DNA of 64,000 nucleotides from a virus (Duplodnaviria > Heunggongvirae > Uroviricota > Caudoviricetes): the IMG/VR virus record IMGVR_UViG_3300029702_000002, one strand, 5' to 3'. Position 1 is the stretch's first letter, and the number at the start of each line of letters is the position of its first letter. A program made the translations under genes and the position numbers. The notes under the pieces are model-generated. The model ran no database searches. It was not told the DNA's origin and saw nothing but the letters and a program-made list of their open reading frames with translations. Positions 2,022 to 48,417 of this stretch are shown here, in pieces.

Positions 2022-2575
2022 TACGATGCCTCTAACTTATCTAACTCTTTCAGCCCTTCACGTACCGCGTTCACAATGCGTTCCAGATACTGGTATTTCG
2101 GGTTTGGTACCGTTGGCCAGTCGGCATACCACGGATCATCACCAAAGAGATTCAGCAGTTTGTTACCGACGCCGAAACAACAGCAGCTTTCTTTTACGTC
2201 ATCGGCGTTTTCCGCCTCGTCCCACATTTCGCGAGCCAGTACGGCGTCTATTTCTCTCTCTCTTCGTAACTTTATGATTTCTGACTTTACGAAAAGCAGA
2301 TTTGCATCGTTGTCATCGTCGACCGTGCTTAGCAGTTGAGGGTCGAAATTGTCGATTAGATAATCGTTGCTAACTCGCTTAATGAACGTCTGCACATCAT
2401 CACCGCCCATAGCAAACCAAGCCGCAGTCCACGCTTTTCCGTAGCAGGTGATGGTGATTCTTCCCTTACCAGGTTCGTAGTTTTCAATCATCACTCGAAC
2501 CGGATCGAGGCGTTCCAGATCCGTCAGCACAAAGGAAAGAACATCTATTTTTTCGACCTTCATGCAGCCTCCCAC
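2021..2575 (-). CDS. hypothetical protein (184 aa)
   Basis: ORF track; operon context. Confidence 0.5.
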   Translation of the reverse strand: MGGCMKVEKIDVLSFVLTDLERLDPVRVMIENYEPGKGRITITCYGKAWTAAWFAMGGDDVQTFIKRVSNDYLIDNFDPQLLSTVDDDNDANLLFVKSEIIKLRREREIDAVLAREMWDEAENADDVKESCCCFGVGNKLLNLFGDDPWYADWPTVPNPKYQYLERIVNAVREGLKELDKLEAS

Positions 2576-4405: not shown

Positions 4406-4466
4406 GTGTTTTTCTCTTATCGTTTAGTAACTACATTCTTACACAAATTAGGTAAGTATTTACCTA

Positions 4467-21149: not shown

Positions 21150-21222
21150 GTATCACCAAATAAAGAGGGCCACTAAATATAGTGGCCCATGTTAATAGAT
21201 AAGCACTTACCTATCAATGAAA

Positions 21223-26759: not shown

Positions 26760-26985
26760 TATTCACATATCCACAGGATAGATCCTAATAAAGAGATCCA
26801 TAGATAGATCCTTGTATAGATCAAATAAGATCCCCGATCGCTGTAAGCCGCGCCACGACTGGTCTGAAGCCATGTTCATGTATGCTGTCAGCGGTAATTG
26901 ATAGTCTGTCAGCGGTTCACCGTATGCTGCCAACTGTTTTTGGTATTCTGTCAGCGGCAAATCAAGTATGCTGTCAGCGGTTGAA
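26760..26985. promoter_or_regulatory. plasmid-type replication origin region: DnaA box, GATC cluster, five iterons
   Basis: ATATCCACA at 26767-26775; six GATC sites within 26782-26839; TATGCTGTCAGCGGT-like repeats at 26881-26981. Confidence 0.7.
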
Positions 26986-27000
26986 TGACAAAGGTGTCCA

Positions 27001-28096
27001 CATGTCCACAAAAAATAAAAAAGGTAAAAATAACAAAGAAGTAGAAGATAATCTCGACAACTTTGAAGAAGGTTCCCTTGAATTGTACACAGGGGAACTT
27101 GTCCCTAATAGCAACAATACAGTCCAACCAATTGCGTTGATGCGGCTGGGATTGTTCGTGCCCACGCTCAAGGGGACAAAATACAGCAAGCGTAACAAGC
27201 CAAATGAGATCGATGCTTCAAAGGAGCTTGTTCAGCTCGAAGTAGCCCGTTCTGAAGGCTATTCCGATATCAAGATAACCGGTCCTCGTCTCGACATGGA
27301 TCATGATTTCAAAACGTGGGTGGGCGTTGTGCGTTCGCTGGCAGAATACGGCGAACCTAACGGTCGTGTCGAGTTAAGCATCACGAAATTTGCGAAGTTT
27401 TGTGGCTATCCATCGTCACAGATCCGCAAAACACTCCGCGACCGGCTTACAAACAGTCTTTTGAAGATCATGCGTACAACTCTGTCTTTCCAGAGAACGT
27501 ATGAAGAAAAGAACGTCGACGGCTCTAACAAGATCTCGCTTCTGATGGTGCACCTCATCAATAGCGTGGACTACAACGAGCAGAAAGATACGGTGGTGTT
27601 CTATGCAGAACCGAAGCTGGCCGAACTATATCGCTTTGACCATAAGGTTCTTTTGCAGTTAAAGGTTATCAATAAGCTACCACGCAAAGAAACAGCACAG
27701 GCTCTGTACACCTTCATCGAAAGTCTTCCAACCAAGCCTGCGCCGGTGTCGCTTGCTCGATTGCGTGCGCGACTCAATTTGAGTAGCAGGAATGTCAGCT
27801 CGCAGAATCAGACTATACGCAACGGCTTAAAAGCTCTCCAAGATTTGGGTTATCTCGAATACAGCGAGATTAAACGAGGGCGGTCGATCTATATCCAGAT
27901 TCACAGCCGCAATCCAAAACTCAAAGTCGCACCGCCAAAACCTGAAGACATCGAACCCAAAAAACTAGATGAGAAAGCTGGGGAAATTGATGCCAAACAG
28001 AACATTATCAACAAGATAACCGAACTTTCGCAGAATTTGACGCCTGAAAATATCAAGATGATTGAGATCCTTTCCAATAGTCTCAAACTGCTTTGA
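27001..28096 (+). CDS. repA: iteron-binding plasmid replication initiator RepA; start moved to ATG at 27001
   Basis: ORF 26882..28096 trimmed because its 5' extension overlaps the iterons; flanked by iteron arrays; recalled resemblance to P1/RepFIB RepA (NSNNTVQP..ALMRLG). Confidence 0.8.
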
Positions 28097-28628
28097 TATG
28101 CTGTCAGCGGTGAAATGTATGCTATCAGCGGCTATTTTTCTGAAAAGTATGCTGTGAACGGTTAAAGATATGCTACCAGCGGTATAGTGAGATGAACGTA
28201 TGCTGTGGGCGGTAAATCATCTATCACCACTCAATGCTCTGTCATACCTCCCCAGTGGTTACTAACCTCGAAGAGTGCATTCCATATAGGTTTGCGCTCA
28301 CTAACATTCTATTGCTATTGCGCTGATTGCTTGTAGTGAAAGGCATTTATTGCCTGCTGCTCCCTGATAGAACGTATGCTGTCAGCGGTGTTTTATTGAG
28401 GAATTTTTGTTTGGATATGCTATCAGCGGTAATTAATGGTATATGTCAGACCTTCGTATGCTGCCAGCGGTAATTTTGTTCTGGTTATACCCATACCGGT
28501 ACACATTATTCATGCAATGTCTTAAGTATGCTGTCAGCGGTAAAAAATCGAGTAAAGTATGCTGTGAGCGGTGAGATAGACTCTCGATATGCTATCAGCG
28601 GTAGTTGATTGTGTATGCTGTCAGCGGT
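28096..28628. repeat. downstream iteron array, 12 copies in three clusters (copy-control type)
   Basis: Copies begin at 28096, 28117, 28147, 28168, 28199, 28374, 28415, 28457, 28526, 28557, 28587, 28613. Confidence 0.85.
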
Positions 28629-28675: not shown

Positions 28676-28888
28676 TTAGTGTATTTTCTTTAACAGACCC
28701 CAAAGTGTTCCGGCTTTTGTAGTCAGTTTTCCTGTTTCTGGATCGTACATACGCCATTCACGCCGCTGGTGGACGATATACCCATCTTCACGTTCCAGAC
28801 GCTCAAGAATGCCAGGCTGCTTGAAACCCTTAGCACGCCAGTAGCCGCTTGTTTTCTCGATTTCCAGACCTGCCAGTGTTAATGCCAT
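28676..28888 (-). CDS. hypothetical protein (70 aa)
   Basis: ORF track. Confidence 0.4.
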   Translation of the reverse strand: MALTLAGLEIEKTSGYWRAKGFKQPGILERLEREDGYIVHQRREWRMYDPETGKLTTKAGTLWGLLKKIH

Positions 28889-29223
28889 TATCCAACCTCC
28901 TTGCAGTCATCGAAAAGGTAGCTTTGCTGAGAAGCGTGAACACCATAGAAGCCCTTGTATTTGTTGTATACGAAGTGGTCTTCTCCGACGCCGGTTAATT
29001 TGCCATTACGATTTGTGAGATATGGGGATGACAACACTCGATCGTCACGCACAACATAGAACTGGTCGCCGCTGTCTACGACCATCGCTCCATATGGTGC
29101 TTTTATGACGTCGGTAAGAGCGCCATTCTTAACGTCGGCTACAGACATTTCACACTGATAAACAGTGGTGTCGGCCACAACGATCGAAGAAAGGAACAAC
29201 AGCGCGAATGGGATGGCCTTCAT
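28888..29223 (-). CDS. secreted protein with signal peptide (111 aa)
   Basis: N-terminal MKAIPFALLFLSSIVVA signal-peptide-like segment. Confidence 0.5.
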   Translation of the reverse strand: MKAIPFALLFLSSIVVADTTVYQCEMSVADVKNGALTDVIKAPYGAMVVDSGDQFYVVRDDRVLSSPYLTNRNGKLTGVGEDHFVYNKYKGFYGVHASQQSYLFDDCKEVG

Positions 29224-29400
29224 GCTGCCACCTCTTTGATTACATCAAATGCTGAATTAAATACGAGCACGATAGCCAAAGCGTTTATGACTACGTCGTT
29301 CACCGGGGAAAAGACTTTACGAATGACACCGGTGAAAATGCAGTCGATGACAAAAGCTATTGAAACGATGAGTAACAAGTATTCAATAAAAATCTTCATG
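29223..29400 (-). CDS. small membrane protein (~59 aa, below ORF-track cutoff)
   Basis: Manual translation MKIFIEYLLLIVSIAFVIDCIFTGV...; stop overlaps start of 28888..29223. Confidence 0.35.
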
Positions 29401-30195: not shown

Positions 30196-30286
30196 GTTTT
30201 CTTATTTTTTTAAACAAATTGTTTTCTTAATAAGATAATTGCGATAAAAAAGGCGTCCAACTGGACGCCTGAACTTTTTAGGGGAG

Positions 30287-31117
30287 TTATTTCACTGTAA
30301 TGAAAGGAGTGTTAGCCCCTTGAGTCATGTACTGCGGTAACTGGCCATTCCATTTATTGATGGCTTCCAGTTCCATAACGTTCGGGTTTTGACGCAGAGC
30401 TTCACCGCGCAGACGAATGGCGTCTGCTTCTGCTTGCGCACGAGCACGGATAGCATCAGCTTCACCATTAGCCTGTTCACGTAGCATATTCGCCTCAGCT
30501 TTACGTTGTTCAACTTCCTGCTGACGTTGCAGAGTACGCTGGTTAGCCGTTACTTTGGCGTTAATAGATTCAATGACAGTTTTTGGGTAATCAGGCTTTC
30601 CAACCCATGACAGGCTCAGTACCTCAATACCAACCGGAGACATCTCTTTCTGAATATCTTTCAGTGCGTTGTCCAGCAATTGTGCCTTACCACCGTCGAT
30701 AAATGAGTCAGTGGTCATACGGCTGGCCAAACGGTTTAGAGAGTCGGCAATTTTCTGACGCAGATCTGATTCGGTGATATCGTCTACGCCTTTGCGATAG
30801 GTCTGGAACACCGTCGTTACCTTGTCACGATTAACCAGATACGCAACGCCAATTTTGTGACCAATAGCAGTACCGTCACTCATCTGGAATGTGAACGGCT
30901 CGTCGTAGGTCTTCATTTGTTTGAAGGTCGGGAATACGTAAAGTTCGGTGTTAAGACCTGTCCATTGGCGACCAACGCCAACCACTTCACCAATCCCTTT
31001 GTCTTCACCTAATTTGTTTACTTTGATGCCAACGTATCCAGGCTCCACGCGATCACAGCCAGTAAGACCCATTGTGCAAATAGCCGCCAGAGCAACTGCA
31101 AGTAAACCTTTCTTCAT
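30287..31117 (-). CDS. SPFH/band-7 (prohibitin/HflC-like) lipoprotein
   Basis: Lipobox LTGC after signal peptide; SPFH-type core followed by coiled-coil EA/AQ-rich region. Confidence 0.75.
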   Translation of the reverse strand: MKKGLLAVALAAICTMGLTGCDRVEPGYVGIKVNKLGEDKGIGEVVGVGRQWTGLNTELYVFPTFKQMKTYDEPFTFQMSDGTAIGHKIGVAYLVNRDKVTTVFQTYRKGVDDITESDLRQKIADSLNRLASRMTTDSFIDGGKAQLLDNALKDIQKEMSPVGIEVLSLSWVGKPDYPKTVIESINAKVTANQRTLQRQQEVEQRKAEANMLREQANGEADAIRARAQAEADAIRLRGEALRQNPNVMELEAINKWNGQLPQYMTQGANTPFITVK

Positions 31118-31120
31118 TAC

Positions 31121-31321
31121 TTATTTCCCCTTTGCTTTGATTAATGAGTTGATAAACTTACGACCAGCAATAAGACCGATTACAGGAGCACCAAAACCAA
31201 CGATAACTCCAAACATGACGGCTAAATCACTCTTGGTAGAAATCAGCGACGGAACCAGTAAACCGTAGATGAGAGCCACTGAAAGGCCTGTGGCTACTGC
31301 CAATAGATAGATTTTGATCAT
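31121..31321 (-). CDS. small two-helix membrane protein, candidate SPFH partner
   Basis: 66 aa, two hydrophobic helices; immediately upstream of the SPFH gene. Confidence 0.5.
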   Translation of the reverse strand: MIKIYLLAVATGLSVALIYGLLVPSLISTKSDLAVMFGVIVGFGAPVIGLIAGRKFINSLIKAKGK

Positions 31322-31413
31322 GTGTTTTCCTATGTGGTTGTTATGCGAAAATAATAAGTAAGTGCTTATATATTTTCAAGAGATAAAAAAGGCGTCCTGT
31401 GGACGCCTTGTGT

Positions 31414-32487
31414 TTACTCTTCTACTGACTCGGTGGGGTTGTCTTTTGCTCTTCGGTCGTCGATTGCCTGCAAAGCCGCAATGATTTCAGCCAGTGGCTT
31501 CTCCCGATACATCTCGACGATCTGCGATTTGGTGTATTTCTTGTCACCAATTTCAACTCGCCCGCTGGCGTTCTTTGGCAGGTATCCTTCTTCCAGCATG
31601 TACTCGACGAGCGATTCGATAACGTCGAGGCCACGAGTAGGATCGAAGTAGAATTTCCAGGTGCATTTGCCATACGGTGGTGCAACTTTGTTTTTGATGC
31701 ATTCTGCGCCTACGTCCTGGCCGATCTTCTCTTTACCATCCTTCATCACCGATGCACCAAGACGGATACGTACAGAAGCGTAGAACTTCGGTGAATCTCC
31801 ACCTGGCGACGTAGTAGGGTCGCCAAACATTACACCGATTTTTGTGCGAACCTGATTCAAGAAGATGATGCAGGCGTTGTATTTGCGTGCCCACAAAGCC
31901 AGAGTAGGGAAGTTCGCACTCGTCGCACGAGCCAGTGCCGTATTGTCGTTCATGTTTAGCTGATCTTTGTCTTTGGCAGTGCCTTCAGCCATCTTTTCGA
32001 ACTTCTCCGCTTTGGAGTTCGGAACCATAGACGCAAGAGAGTCAGCCACGATACAGATTGGTGCTGATTCGGGGATAAGCTCTTCATCACGAACCAATTT
32101 AAGTATTGTGCCGATCAACTCTACAGAGTCTTCGAAGGTATCTGGCTGCTTGTATACCCACTGACCGTCATCCTCATCTGCGTTCAGGCCATTGGCGACA
32201 GCCAGGCCAACGTCAAAACTGTTTTCATGATCGAGGAATACCGCCAGACCATCTTGTTTTTGAGCGGAGATCATCGCTGCTGTTGCAAGGAACGTTTTCC
32301 CTGCACTTGGAGGACCGAATACTTCGACGATACGACCACATGGGAAGCCGCCATCGTAACGACCAGAAATAGCTTTGTTTAACGGTGGAAAGCCTGTATC
32401 AATCCAATGAGTTACTTTCTGAATTTCGTCGTTGCTACCGATTTTCTTTTTCAGAGCAAGTGCCAGTGCGGATTTTCCTTTTGCCAT
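31414..32487 (-). CDS. RecA/UvsX-like recombinase
   Basis: Walker A GPPSAGKT; RecA-fold core; 357 aa. Confidence 0.85.
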   Translation of the reverse strand: MAKGKSALALALKKKIGSNDEIQKVTHWIDTGFPPLNKAISGRYDGGFPCGRIVEVFGPPSAGKTFLATAAMISAQKQDGLAVFLDHENSFDVGLAVANGLNADEDDGQWVYKQPDTFEDSVELIGTILKLVRDEELIPESAPICIVADSLASMVPNSKAEKFEKMAEGTAKDKDQLNMNDNTALARATSANFPTLALWARKYNACIIFLNQVRTKIGVMFGDPTTSPGGDSPKFYASVRIRLGASVMKDGKEKIGQDVGAECIKNKVAPPYGKCTWKFYFDPTRGLDVIESLVEYMLEEGYLPKNASGRVEIGDKKYTKSQIVEMYREKPLAEIIAALQAIDDRRAKDNPTESVEE

Positions 32488-44278: not shown

Positions 44279-44324
44279 CGGTAAGCACTTACCAGAGAGA
44301 ATTGAACGCGCAAAGGTTGTAACC

Positions 44325-44711
44325 ATGTCTGATAACAAGATTGAATTTATAGAAAGTCGCTACGCTGCTTTTATCGCAGGGTTGATTGAATCCTCACCTA
44401 TGAGCCAGGCCCAGATAGCCAAAACAATTGGGTATAAAAACGCCAACAACCTTTCTTTAATTAAAAGCGGCAAAATTCCTTTGCCTATCGATAAGGTTCG
44501 TCCGCTGGCGCTGGCACTGGGCATTGAGCCAAGTCGTCTTATGATGATGGTGCTGGAAGAACGCCAACCCGAACTCGCAGCATTTTTATACAAAGAAGGC
44601 ACTGCTCCTCTTAACGAGGACGAAAAACAGGTTCTTGCTGCATATAACGAGCGATTCGGTAAAGAGAAAGGCGCATCACAAAAGGTTGTTGAGGCCATAA
44701 AGTCTCTATGA
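44325..44711 (+). CDS. helix-turn-helix transcriptional regulator
   Basis: MSQAQIAKTIGYKNANNLSLIKSGK HTH-like segment; 128 aa. Confidence 0.6.
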   Translation: MSDNKIEFIESRYAAFIAGLIESSPMSQAQIAKTIGYKNANNLSLIKSGKIPLPIDKVRPLALALGIEPSRLMMMVLEERQPELAAFLYKEGTAPLNEDEKQVLAAYNERFGKEKGASQKVVEAIKSL

Positions 44712-48330: not shown

Positions 48331-48417
48331 TGGCGGAGAGTAATGGAATCGAACCATCATCGCTTGCGCAATGGGACGGTTTTCAAGACCGCTTGAGCAC
48401 CATGCTCCCTACTCTCC
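48331..48417 (-). tRNA. tRNA-Ser (anticodon UGA), class II with long variable arm
   Basis: Manual fold: acceptor GGAGAGT/ACTCTCC, anticodon loop CUUGAAA, long variable arm, T-loop TTCGATT, encoded CCA. Confidence 0.75.

Follow-up and report, generated by a model that had tools for sequence, protein, structure and literature searches.

A predicted two-part module of an SPFH lipoprotein and a small hairpin membrane protein in an SSU5-like phage-plasmid

Structures of SPFH cages (HflK/C, prohibitin, erlin, stomatin, flotillin) became available only from about 2022, and what these cages act on, and how, is still under debate. HflK/C has also been tied historically to phage biology through lambda CII stability. 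Here we analyzed two adjacent genes at positions 30287-31321 (minus strand) of the virus record IMGVR_UViG_3300029702_000002, a 64,000-nucleotide (nt) stretch of DNA that is called the window below. A sequence-only reading of this stretch, made without database searches, had described the two open reading frames (ORFs) as those of an SPFH lipoprotein and a translationally coupled membrane protein of 66 amino acids on a phage, and this description held. The 2.8 kb around the pair was 100% identical to 109-kb Escherichia coli plasmids, 96-99% identical to the Escherichia phages CMS-2020a, PhiR41_1, and Cyrano, and 81% identical to Salmonella phage SSU5; on these identities the window is assigned to an SSU5-like E. 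coli phage-plasmid. Orthologues of the pair are annotated SSU5_061/062 and CYRAN_56/57 in the relatives. The overall reading, to which we give about an even chance, is that the two proteins form a two-part, periplasm-facing SPFH cage on the inner membrane, which would be expressed during lytic growth and act on a conserved component of the host membrane.

Of the described systems, the HflK/HflC cage of E. coli FtsH (7vhp, 7vhq, 7wi3, 9cz2) resembles the locus in its SPFH1/2 domains, in a wall helix of about 65 residues with a C-terminal cap segment, and in the predicted position on the periplasmic face of the inner membrane. The differences are that the phage protein falls below the family cut-offs and is encoded by one SPFH gene instead of a K/C pair, that it has a lipid anchor instead of an N-terminal transmembrane (TM) helix, that the TM part would come from a separate 66-residue hairpin protein, and that the genes are phage-borne. 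The SPFH-NfeD operons (QmcA-YbbJ, 8z5g; YqiK-YqiJ; archaeal PH1511-PH1510) share with the locus an adjacent, co-transcribed small membrane partner, which is thought to lie within the cage. However, the phage partner has only 66 residues and no NfeD/OB-fold domain (0 of 13 homologues), its gene lies upstream and is N-terminally fused in some lineages, and the phage SPFH protein is predicted to be exported, whereas QmcA and YqiK face the cytoplasm. The prohibitin 1/2 and erlin 1/2 cages (8rrh, 9o9z, 9vvg, 9o9u) were among the top fold matches and also lie on the non-cytoplasmic side, but they are eukaryotic, TM-anchored, and hetero-oligomeric, and the identity is only 15-18%. What sets the pair apart from both HflK/C and SPFH-NfeD is thus the lipid anchor, the hairpin family, and the presence in phages.

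Neither sequence is new as such, since both genes have database entries (PHROG 200 and PHROG 1130; 'SPFH domain-containing protein' in RefSeq). The catalogued members, which include N4 gp20/gp19, PVP-SE1 gp118, SSU5 gp062/061, P88 gp12/gp11, and Cyrano CYRAN_57/56, show no structural difference from the pair. No functional study of an SPFH phage gene was found in the literature; the gene is listed in genome papers, and a paper from 2026 stated that it was unclear why a phage would carry one. The 'band 7' of a phiCbK genomics paper proved to be a gel band and not the protein. The two-part module, its fusions, its orientation, and its regulation appear to be unreported.

Features of the SPFH lipoprotein

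The SPFH lipoprotein gene (30287..31117, minus strand, 276 amino acids) was recognized from its ORF, from Pfam and PHROG matches, and from AlphaFold2 and Foldseek. Residues 23-209 (30491..31051, minus strand) matched the SPFH/Band_7 family PF01145 with E=2.6e-30 and 106.2 bits against a cut-off of 23.6, over profile positions 2-176 of 176, and residues 1-275 matched PHROG 200 'lipoprotein' at 3e-108. The match to the Band_7 profile was strong, so the absence of an SPFH domain is ruled out; the SPFH core, the LTGC lipobox, and the coiled-coil tail read earlier from the letters were all recovered, the tail as a helix of residues 179-243. The AlphaFold2 model, built with 18 homologues in the input, had a mean predicted local distance difference test score (pLDDT) of 79, rising to 89-96 in the core (residues 61-180). 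In the model, a beta-rich SPFH1 is followed by an alpha/beta SPFH2 and by the single long helix (30389..30583, minus strand), which the model, the conservation, and sequence matches in the PDB mark as the probable equivalent of the wall helix of SPFH cages. A conserved C-terminal motif, LEAINKWNG..P..M....PF, comes after this helix, and the two together would be compatible with oligomeric assembly.

Foldseek against the PDB aligned the full chain to HflC/HflK (7vhq, E=8.6e-14), and gave further matches with probability 1.00 to erlin1/2, prohibitin1/2 (PHB1/2), stomatin, flotillin, major vault protein, and QmcA. The three best structural groups were those whose cage faces away from the cytoplasm. 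By sequence, only prohibitin-2 (the best match, over its coiled coil) and HflK were detectable in the PDB, at E about 1e-3; both matches fell over the long-helix stretch, and the one to HflK was weak and covered residues 115-233. The NCBIfam HflC and HflK models (TIGR01933, TIGR01932, NF008259) missed the protein, with 30.2 bits against a cut-off of 134.4 for HflC and 18.7 against 159.4 for HflK, and PRK11029 missed it with 16.8 bits against 427. Orthology to HflK/HflC was rejected on these equivalog scores, which lay far below the cut-offs. The earlier label 'prohibitin/HflC-like' therefore stood for the fold (HflC/HflK, prohibitin) and failed for the family. On the modelled fold, the protein is best described as a divergent SPFH member with a complete cage-type architecture. 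In GenBank, members of this family are repeatedly mis-annotated as 'serine protease' or 'transposase (fusion protein)'.

The gene was under purifying selection, with an omega of about 0.025 against the SSU5-lineage copies, and the Cyrano protein was identical in amino-acid sequence to that of the window. Across unrelated temperate phage types of enterobacteria, the identity of the SPFH protein was 73-79%.

The signal peptide (residues 1-20) and the lipobox Cys21, with Asp22 at +2, lie at 31055..31117 (minus strand) and were assigned from the sequence and an alignment of 18 homologues. The N-terminus, MKKGLLAVALAAICTMGLTGC followed by DRVEPG, has a basic n-region, a hydrophobic core, a lipobox, and Asp at +2; the lipobox L18-T19-G20-C21 fits [LVI][ASTVI][GAS]C, and lipidation is predicted. 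In the 18 close homologues, Cys21 was nearly invariant and Asp22 was invariant. An Asp at +2 is the classical inner-membrane retention signal in lipoproteins of Enterobacteriaceae. A library-wide search for SPFH homologues gave 2816 representatives at E<=0.001 and 195 at E<=1e-30, and the proportions of lipoboxes, anchors, and fusions given here were counted among the best 150 representatives. A lipobox Cys stood immediately ahead of the first SPFH strand in about 80% of these, and in about 9% the N-terminus was a hydrophobic segment free of Cys, a type-II anchor in the inner membrane like that of HflK/C. Because such a Cys-less anchor can only be in the inner membrane, these members support the inner-membrane placement of the family. 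From the conservation of Cys21 and Asp22, the TM-anchored members, and the hairpin fusions described below, we infer that the family is retained at the inner membrane and sits on its periplasmic face.

The hairpin partner

The gene of the 66-residue protein, a predicted inner-membrane partner, lies at 31121..31321 (minus strand), directly upstream of the SPFH gene, and was supported by its ORF, hydropathy, a match to PHROG 1130, a family alignment, and omega. Its stop codon TAA is followed by GTA and then by the ATG of the SPFH gene, which leaves a 3-nt gap, and the G-rich Shine-Dalgarno sequence of the SPFH gene, AAGGGG, falls inside the 3' end of the hairpin ORF. By hydropathy, the protein has hydrophobic segments at about 3-27 and 33-53, a loop of 4-5 residues (TKSD), and a basic C-terminal tail, RKFINSLIKAKGK. 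It is predicted to be N-in/C-in, with two TM helices, a periplasmic turn (P24-S28...D32), and a basic cytoplasmic tail of 13 residues. Residues 1-65 matched PHROG 1130 'membrane protein' (category moron/host takeover) at 2.1e-25. P24, S28, and G38 were invariant across 13 diverse homologues, and several divergent classes shared the signature P-x-[LM]-[ILV]-S at the periplasmic end of helix 1, followed by a Gly at the start of helix 2, a Pro late in helix 2, and then the basic tail.

The Pfam NfeD profile gave no match to the window hairpin at E<=1 and none to the 13 diverse partner homologues at E<=10. NfeD identity was rejected on this ground and because 66 residues leave no space for an OB-fold domain, so that the earlier comparison with SPFH/NfeD pairs held for the operon logic but not for the partner. 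No PDB relative of the hairpin homologues was found. The sequences point to a small family of its own, which is probably a dedicated partner of the SPFH lipoprotein.

The adjacency of the two genes was widely conserved. Searches with the hairpin (tblastn against phages and a word-indexed search) found only SSU5-like or close copies, since the protein is short and hydrophobic, and the adjacency was then checked locus by locus. Of 83 close viral loci, at least 79 had a homologous two-TM ORF immediately before the SPFH gene, and the arrangement recurred in P88, the P1-like element, phiP27, N4-like Jura (gp19/gp20), rV5-like phages (19-1-2), Vibrio CKB-S1, Pseudomonas U2, T7-like Desulfovibrio ProddE, and the P. 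putida and Nevskia prophages. At the distant loci of this kind, the SPFH identity was only 40-65%, and in homologous loci the genes were separated by a 3-nt gap or overlapped by 4-20 nt. In phiP27, the hairpin-family ORF (about 62 amino acids, MRLYFTIVILLAIIACIYGLLVPFLISMKDT..., about 2310-2500, plus strand, upstream of L05) was unannotated and stood directly before the SPFH lipoprotein gene. In two rV5-like phages, 4MG and pEa_SNUABM_55, the hairpin gene lay one gene further upstream. There, a soluble ORF of 54-57 amino acids (MLLNLKASTWEKLQHLARVKNKS...) stood between the two genes (1329-1493 in 4MG, 1284-1457 in pEa_SNUABM_55); in this lineage, it might add a third component to the pair or serve as a regulator.

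In about 15 of the best 150 representatives (about 10%), the two proteins were fused in frame in the order hairpin, basic linker, hydrophobic segment with a lipobox Cys, and SPFH, a count that may be too high, with some assembly errors in it, because the cluster representatives are probably biased to the longest member. Most fused representatives were metagenomic singletons. However, five fused lineages recurred overall: the fused P0157 was identical in three assemblies and lay in a phage-like early region, and P0198/P0305 and P0218/P0307 recurred on separate contigs with sequence differences. The topology of the fusions requires an N-in/C-in hairpin and an exported SPFH part, and it therefore fits a periplasmic SPFH domain.

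Against the SSU5-lineage copies, the hairpin gene had an omega of 0.13-0.34, which indicates purifying selection but a much faster evolution than that of the SPFH gene. When the window was compared with Cyrano, the hairpin genes had a pS of 0.43 and the SPFH genes one of 0.005, and the hairpin proteins were 73% identical. The sharp mosaic boundary at 31117/31121 in this comparison indicates that recombination swaps hairpin alleles at the gene junction.

Genomic contexts and transcription of the pair

SPFH homologues were found in 413 of 50,697 phage records, and the locus matched 671 plasmid records, mostly of non-mobilisable phage-plasmids. The temperate carriers included SSU5-, P1-, P2-, and lambda-like phages, among them Stx2a phages, and the strictly virulent carriers included N4-like, rV5-like, FelixO1-like, LUZ24-like, phiCbK, T7-like, crAss-like, and Lak phages. 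The SPFH family was abundant in environmental bacteria too, and the two chromosomal copies that were examined were both inside prophages.

In the window, the pair is flanked by a RecA-like recombinase gene and by small genes leading toward repA, and in virulent phages it adjoins genes of DNA metabolism. In the P1-like element, it was bordered on one side by an exact bivalent C1 operator, located where dmt ends, and on the other by ban, a helicase gene, and it took the place of the tciABC region of P1. P1 itself has upl-plp in the same dmt-ban interval, but these genes were rejected as the same pair, as Plp is an unrelated lipoprotein of 125 amino acids encoded on the opposite strand; P1 is therefore without the SPFH pair. 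In the P2-like P88, the pair was part of the Cox-to-A early operon, between cox and the replication gene, and in N4-like Jura terminators had been annotated on both sides of gp19-gp20. In the Klebsiella SSU5-like plasmid pJN2-26, other genes occupied the slot after recA.

The pair is enclosed by two intrinsic terminators on the minus strand. The 5' boundary is the terminator of the recA-like gene (31389..31409), a 9-bp stem AAGGCGTCC-ACA-GGACGCCTT followed by TTTTAT, which was conserved in 27 distinct SSU5-like sequences with compensatory changes in the stem (GGCGCCC/GGGCGCC). The terminator at the end of the cassette (30251..30270) is AGGCGTCC-AGTT-GGACGCCT followed by TTTTTAT. A 16-nt direct repeat, GATAAAAAAGGCGTCC (family D2, unstranded), occurs at 30243..30258 and 31382-31397 in 100% identical copies 1139 nt apart, which are the matching halves of the two terminators. 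A putative sigma-70-type promoter, TTGAAA-17 nt-TATTAT (31351..31379, minus strand), has 10 of 12 consensus matches. The promoter stretch TTGAAAAT(A/G)TATAAG(T/C)ACTTACTTAT(C/T)AT occurred only once in the window and was nearly invariant in the 27 SSU5-like sequences, although the adjacent coding DNA had diverged.

The spacer of the promoter contains a candidate operator-like element, TAAGCACTTAC (31358..31368, minus strand), with the near-palindrome TAAGYRCTTA, which was picked out by motif enrichment. A motif search found five copies of TAAGYAYTTAC in the window (4453-4463, plus; 21200-21210, plus; 31358-31368, minus; 44282-44292, plus; 49541-49551, minus), against 0.13 expected, and none of 100 shuffles reached five. 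Every copy sat 1-2 nt upstream of a -10-like hexamer, and one was 33 nt upstream of the ORF of a putative helix-turn-helix repressor of 128 amino acids (44325-44711). The motif may thus mark an operator/promoter regulon of the phage-plasmid that would be bound by a repressor. Another copy precedes the cluster of transfer RNA (tRNA) genes.

Expression of the Cyrano orthologues was taken from published RNA-seq data of the LF82 Cyrano lysogen (PMC9928086). In stationary lysogeny broth (LB) culture, CYRAN_56/57 were at background, with log2 values of 2.3-4.3, compared with 6.4-6.8 for the repressor (PMC9928086, S1 Table). In THP-1 macrophages at 6 h, CYRAN_56/57 reached log2 7.3-7.7, while the adjacent recA and exonuclease genes stayed at 2.4-4.1, and the two genes varied independently of the adjacent recA, the exonuclease gene, and CYRAN_58 (PMC9928086). 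The pair is thus an autonomous transcription unit, which is silent in the LB-grown lysogen as judged by its Cyrano orthologues. It is built like a moron, with its own promoter-like site, terminators on both sides, and expression uncoupled from that of its neighbours, but in contrast with classic morons it was not expressed in the LB-grown lysogen.

Possible roles of the pair and neighbouring features

In the proposed mechanism, the 276-residue product would be exported, lipid-modified at Cys21, and kept in the outer leaflet of the inner membrane. An SPFH protein that is exported and lipid-anchored would have its SPFH domain and long helix in the periplasm, on the same side as HflK/C, the prohibitins, and the erlins. 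The lipoprotein would form a ring- or dome-shaped assembly enclosing a small area of the inner membrane, and the hairpin, made in step from the same mRNA, would be its dedicated membrane-spanning subunit, supplying in trans the TM segments that the lipid anchor lacks. The conserved turn of the hairpin may contact the membrane-proximal surface of SPFH1, and the basic tail would link the cage to the cytoplasmic face. The unit would be kept off in the plasmid prophage, probably by a repressor, and its expression would begin in lytic growth together with that of the early genes for replication and recombination. The most likely job of such an assembly would be to sequester or modulate a conserved machine of the host inner membrane.

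A conserved host target is favoured because unrelated phages that share hosts encode SPFH proteins with 73-79% identity; together with the omega of about 0.025, this identity fits the pattern expected of a conserved partner rather than of an arms race. On the precedent of HflK/C, the quality-control protease FtsH is the leading candidate for this target, but a tentative one, and on balance an unlikely one. A wider proposal, doubtful but with some chance of being right, is that temperate and virulent phages alike install early a 'split' SPFH cage, consisting of a lipid-anchored wall and a hairpin subunit, which would capture or wall off a machine of the host or of a competitor, such as FtsH, a DNA-entry port, or a pore-forming abortive-infection effector. 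If this were true, the pair would be the first viral SPFH cage with a defined client.

The pair is a minimal portable SPFH unit, with a mature lipoprotein of 256 residues and a hairpin of 66 residues; it is tightly regulated, occurs naturally in fused form as well, and has hundreds of homologues, gp19/gp20 of the model phage N4 among them. Should the two proteins build a cage whose client can be defined, the function of SPFH cages could be studied in a tractable setting, and a common, little-studied step in the takeover of the host envelope by phages would come to light. For annotation, the signature P-x-[LM]-[ILV]-S ... G ... P can be used to recognize the small partner, and the mis-annotated SPFH genes noted above can be flagged.

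Several points weigh against the proposed periplasmic cage. The residue at +3 of the lipoprotein is Arg, and the N4-like and rV5-like homologues have Tyr or Glu at +2. In the Lol-avoidance literature, the +3 residue can weaken retention by Asp(+2), so that sorting to the outer membrane would be possible. In Pseudomonas TL and phiCbK, the small membrane proteins encoded before the SPFH gene are of other kinds, and the possible over-count of fusions bears on the partnership as well. As the hairpin recombines independently of the SPFH gene, any contact surface between the two proteins must be tolerant. In the P. putida prophage, the pair lies just downstream of a CI-like repressor gene on the same strand, which resembles lambda rexAB and fits expression in the prophage. 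As regards FtsH, the resemblance of the modelled fold is the one line that would connect it with the pair, and the SPFH protein fails the HflK/HflC models, is without their TM anchor, and is encoded by one SPFH gene and not two.

Among the other explanations, superinfection exclusion or membrane defence is unlikely, but it survives best. Here the assembly would block DNA entry or the insertion of the tail tube or tape measure of secondary phages, like T4 Imm/Sp, P22 SieA, and the lipoprotein superinfection exclusion (Sie) factors. Both proteins are predicted in the envelope, the architecture is autonomous and moron-like, the slot after recA carries variable cargo (that of Klebsiella pJN2-26 differs), and the position in the P. 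putida prophage, directly downstream of the repressor on the same strand, would suit such a role. An early expression of the pair would parallel T4 imm/sp, and the fast evolution of the hairpin and the exchange of its alleles by recombination are what a specificity determinant might show. However, the periplasmic domain is extremely conserved (omega of about 0.025), unlike arms-race proteins, and a cage would cover only small patches of the membrane. The background level of the Cyrano orthologues in the LB lysogen also argues against a constitutive, prophage-expressed gene, and the pair is present in strictly virulent phages. A search of PADLOC-DB v2 with both proteins and four downstream neighbours gave no family at E<=1, so a known defence system was rejected, and literature searches found no link between SPFH proteins and anti-phage activity.

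Control of lysis or permeability, in which the hairpin would be a holin- or viroporin-like pore former restrained or timed by the SPFH cage, as stomatins regulate ion channels, is improbable. The hairpin is similar in architecture to class II holins (two TM segments, N-in/C-in, and a charged, here basic, C-terminal tail), two partner homologues weakly matched Phage_holin_3_6 (best E=0.009), and a stomatin-channel complex (9zd2) was among the Foldseek matches. Phage N4, which carries the pair, has a long latent period. However, the Phage_holin_3_6 matches are typical hydrophobic noise, and the window hairpin had no Pfam match to a holin, nor was there a holin-family match among the PHROGs. The pair does not belong to the lysis cassette: in the near-identical genome of Cyrano, the holin, endolysin, Rz, and Rz1 genes lie at 26.7-28.2 kb and the pair at 57.5 kb, about 30 kb apart, and the unit travels with early and not with late genes.

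A lipoprotein of lysogenic conversion or virulence, acting on an animal host, for example as a Toll-like receptor (TLR) 1/2 agonist shed in outer-membrane vesicles (OMVs), is likewise improbable. The precedent is Pasteurella multocida PM0222, a prophage HflK/C-like protein of 25-35 kDa that is found in OMVs and activates TLR1/2 and whose deletion attenuates virulence, but it is no more than a possible relative of the phage SPFH family. The Cyrano orthologues were up 10- to 40-fold in macrophages at 6 h. However, this induction was modest and common to the Cyrano capsid and tail genes, which suggests partial derepression, and the family is abundant in virulent phages and environmental bacteria, where no animal host is involved.

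It is hardly credible that the two genes are chance neighbours, or that the small ORF does not represent a gene, with the SPFH protein acting alone: although the partner is short, hydrophobic, unannotated in records such as that of phiP27, and found by tblastn in SSU5-like phages only, the adjacency is conserved across phage families at 40-47% SPFH identity, and the invariant P/S/G motif, the purifying selection, and the in-frame fusions all speak for a genuine partner. The chance that the protein is a virion structural component, which the sequence-only reading had named as the contrary case, is negligible, as it is predicted to be a Sec/Lsp-exported lipoprotein encoded in the replication/recombination region, at a great distance from the structural module; in mass spectrometry of Vi01-like virions, there were 3 peptide retrievals for a distant SPFH lipoprotein, compared with hundreds for structural proteins, which looks like membrane carry-over.

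Other features of the window were recorded besides the pair. The RecA-like gene (31414-32487, minus strand) was uninterrupted in the window and encodes 357 amino acids. In Cyrano, PhiR41_1, and plasmid NZ_CP027358, the recA region was longer by an insertion of about 1.27 kb, for which the annotation is LAGLIDADG homing endonuclease; the coding sequence in Cyrano was 2340 nt, and the insertion looks like a presence/absence polymorphism of an intein or homing endonuclease. About 15 iterons with the core GTATGCTGTCAGCGGT were found at 26876-26981 and 28092-28628, on either side of repA (ORF 26882-28096). The upstream iterons overlap the start of the longest repA ORF, so the true start of RepA is probably further downstream; the RepA of Cyrano has 351 amino acids, and the layout of the iterons in the window is similar to that of P1 oriR/incA. 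Three tRNA genes were found on the minus strand, namely Ser(tga) at 48331-48417, below the Rfam gathering threshold, and Thr(tgt) at 48631-48706 and Asn(gtt) at 48709-48783, both reported at that threshold. Downstream of the cassette, 28888-29399 (minus strand) encodes a membrane protein of 59 amino acids and a protein of 111 amino acids with a signal-peptide-like N-terminus, the orthologues of CYRAN_60/61. In LF82, CYRAN_60/61 were at the floor in LB and more than 50-fold up in macrophages at 6 h, a stronger induction than that of the SPFH pair (PMC9928086).

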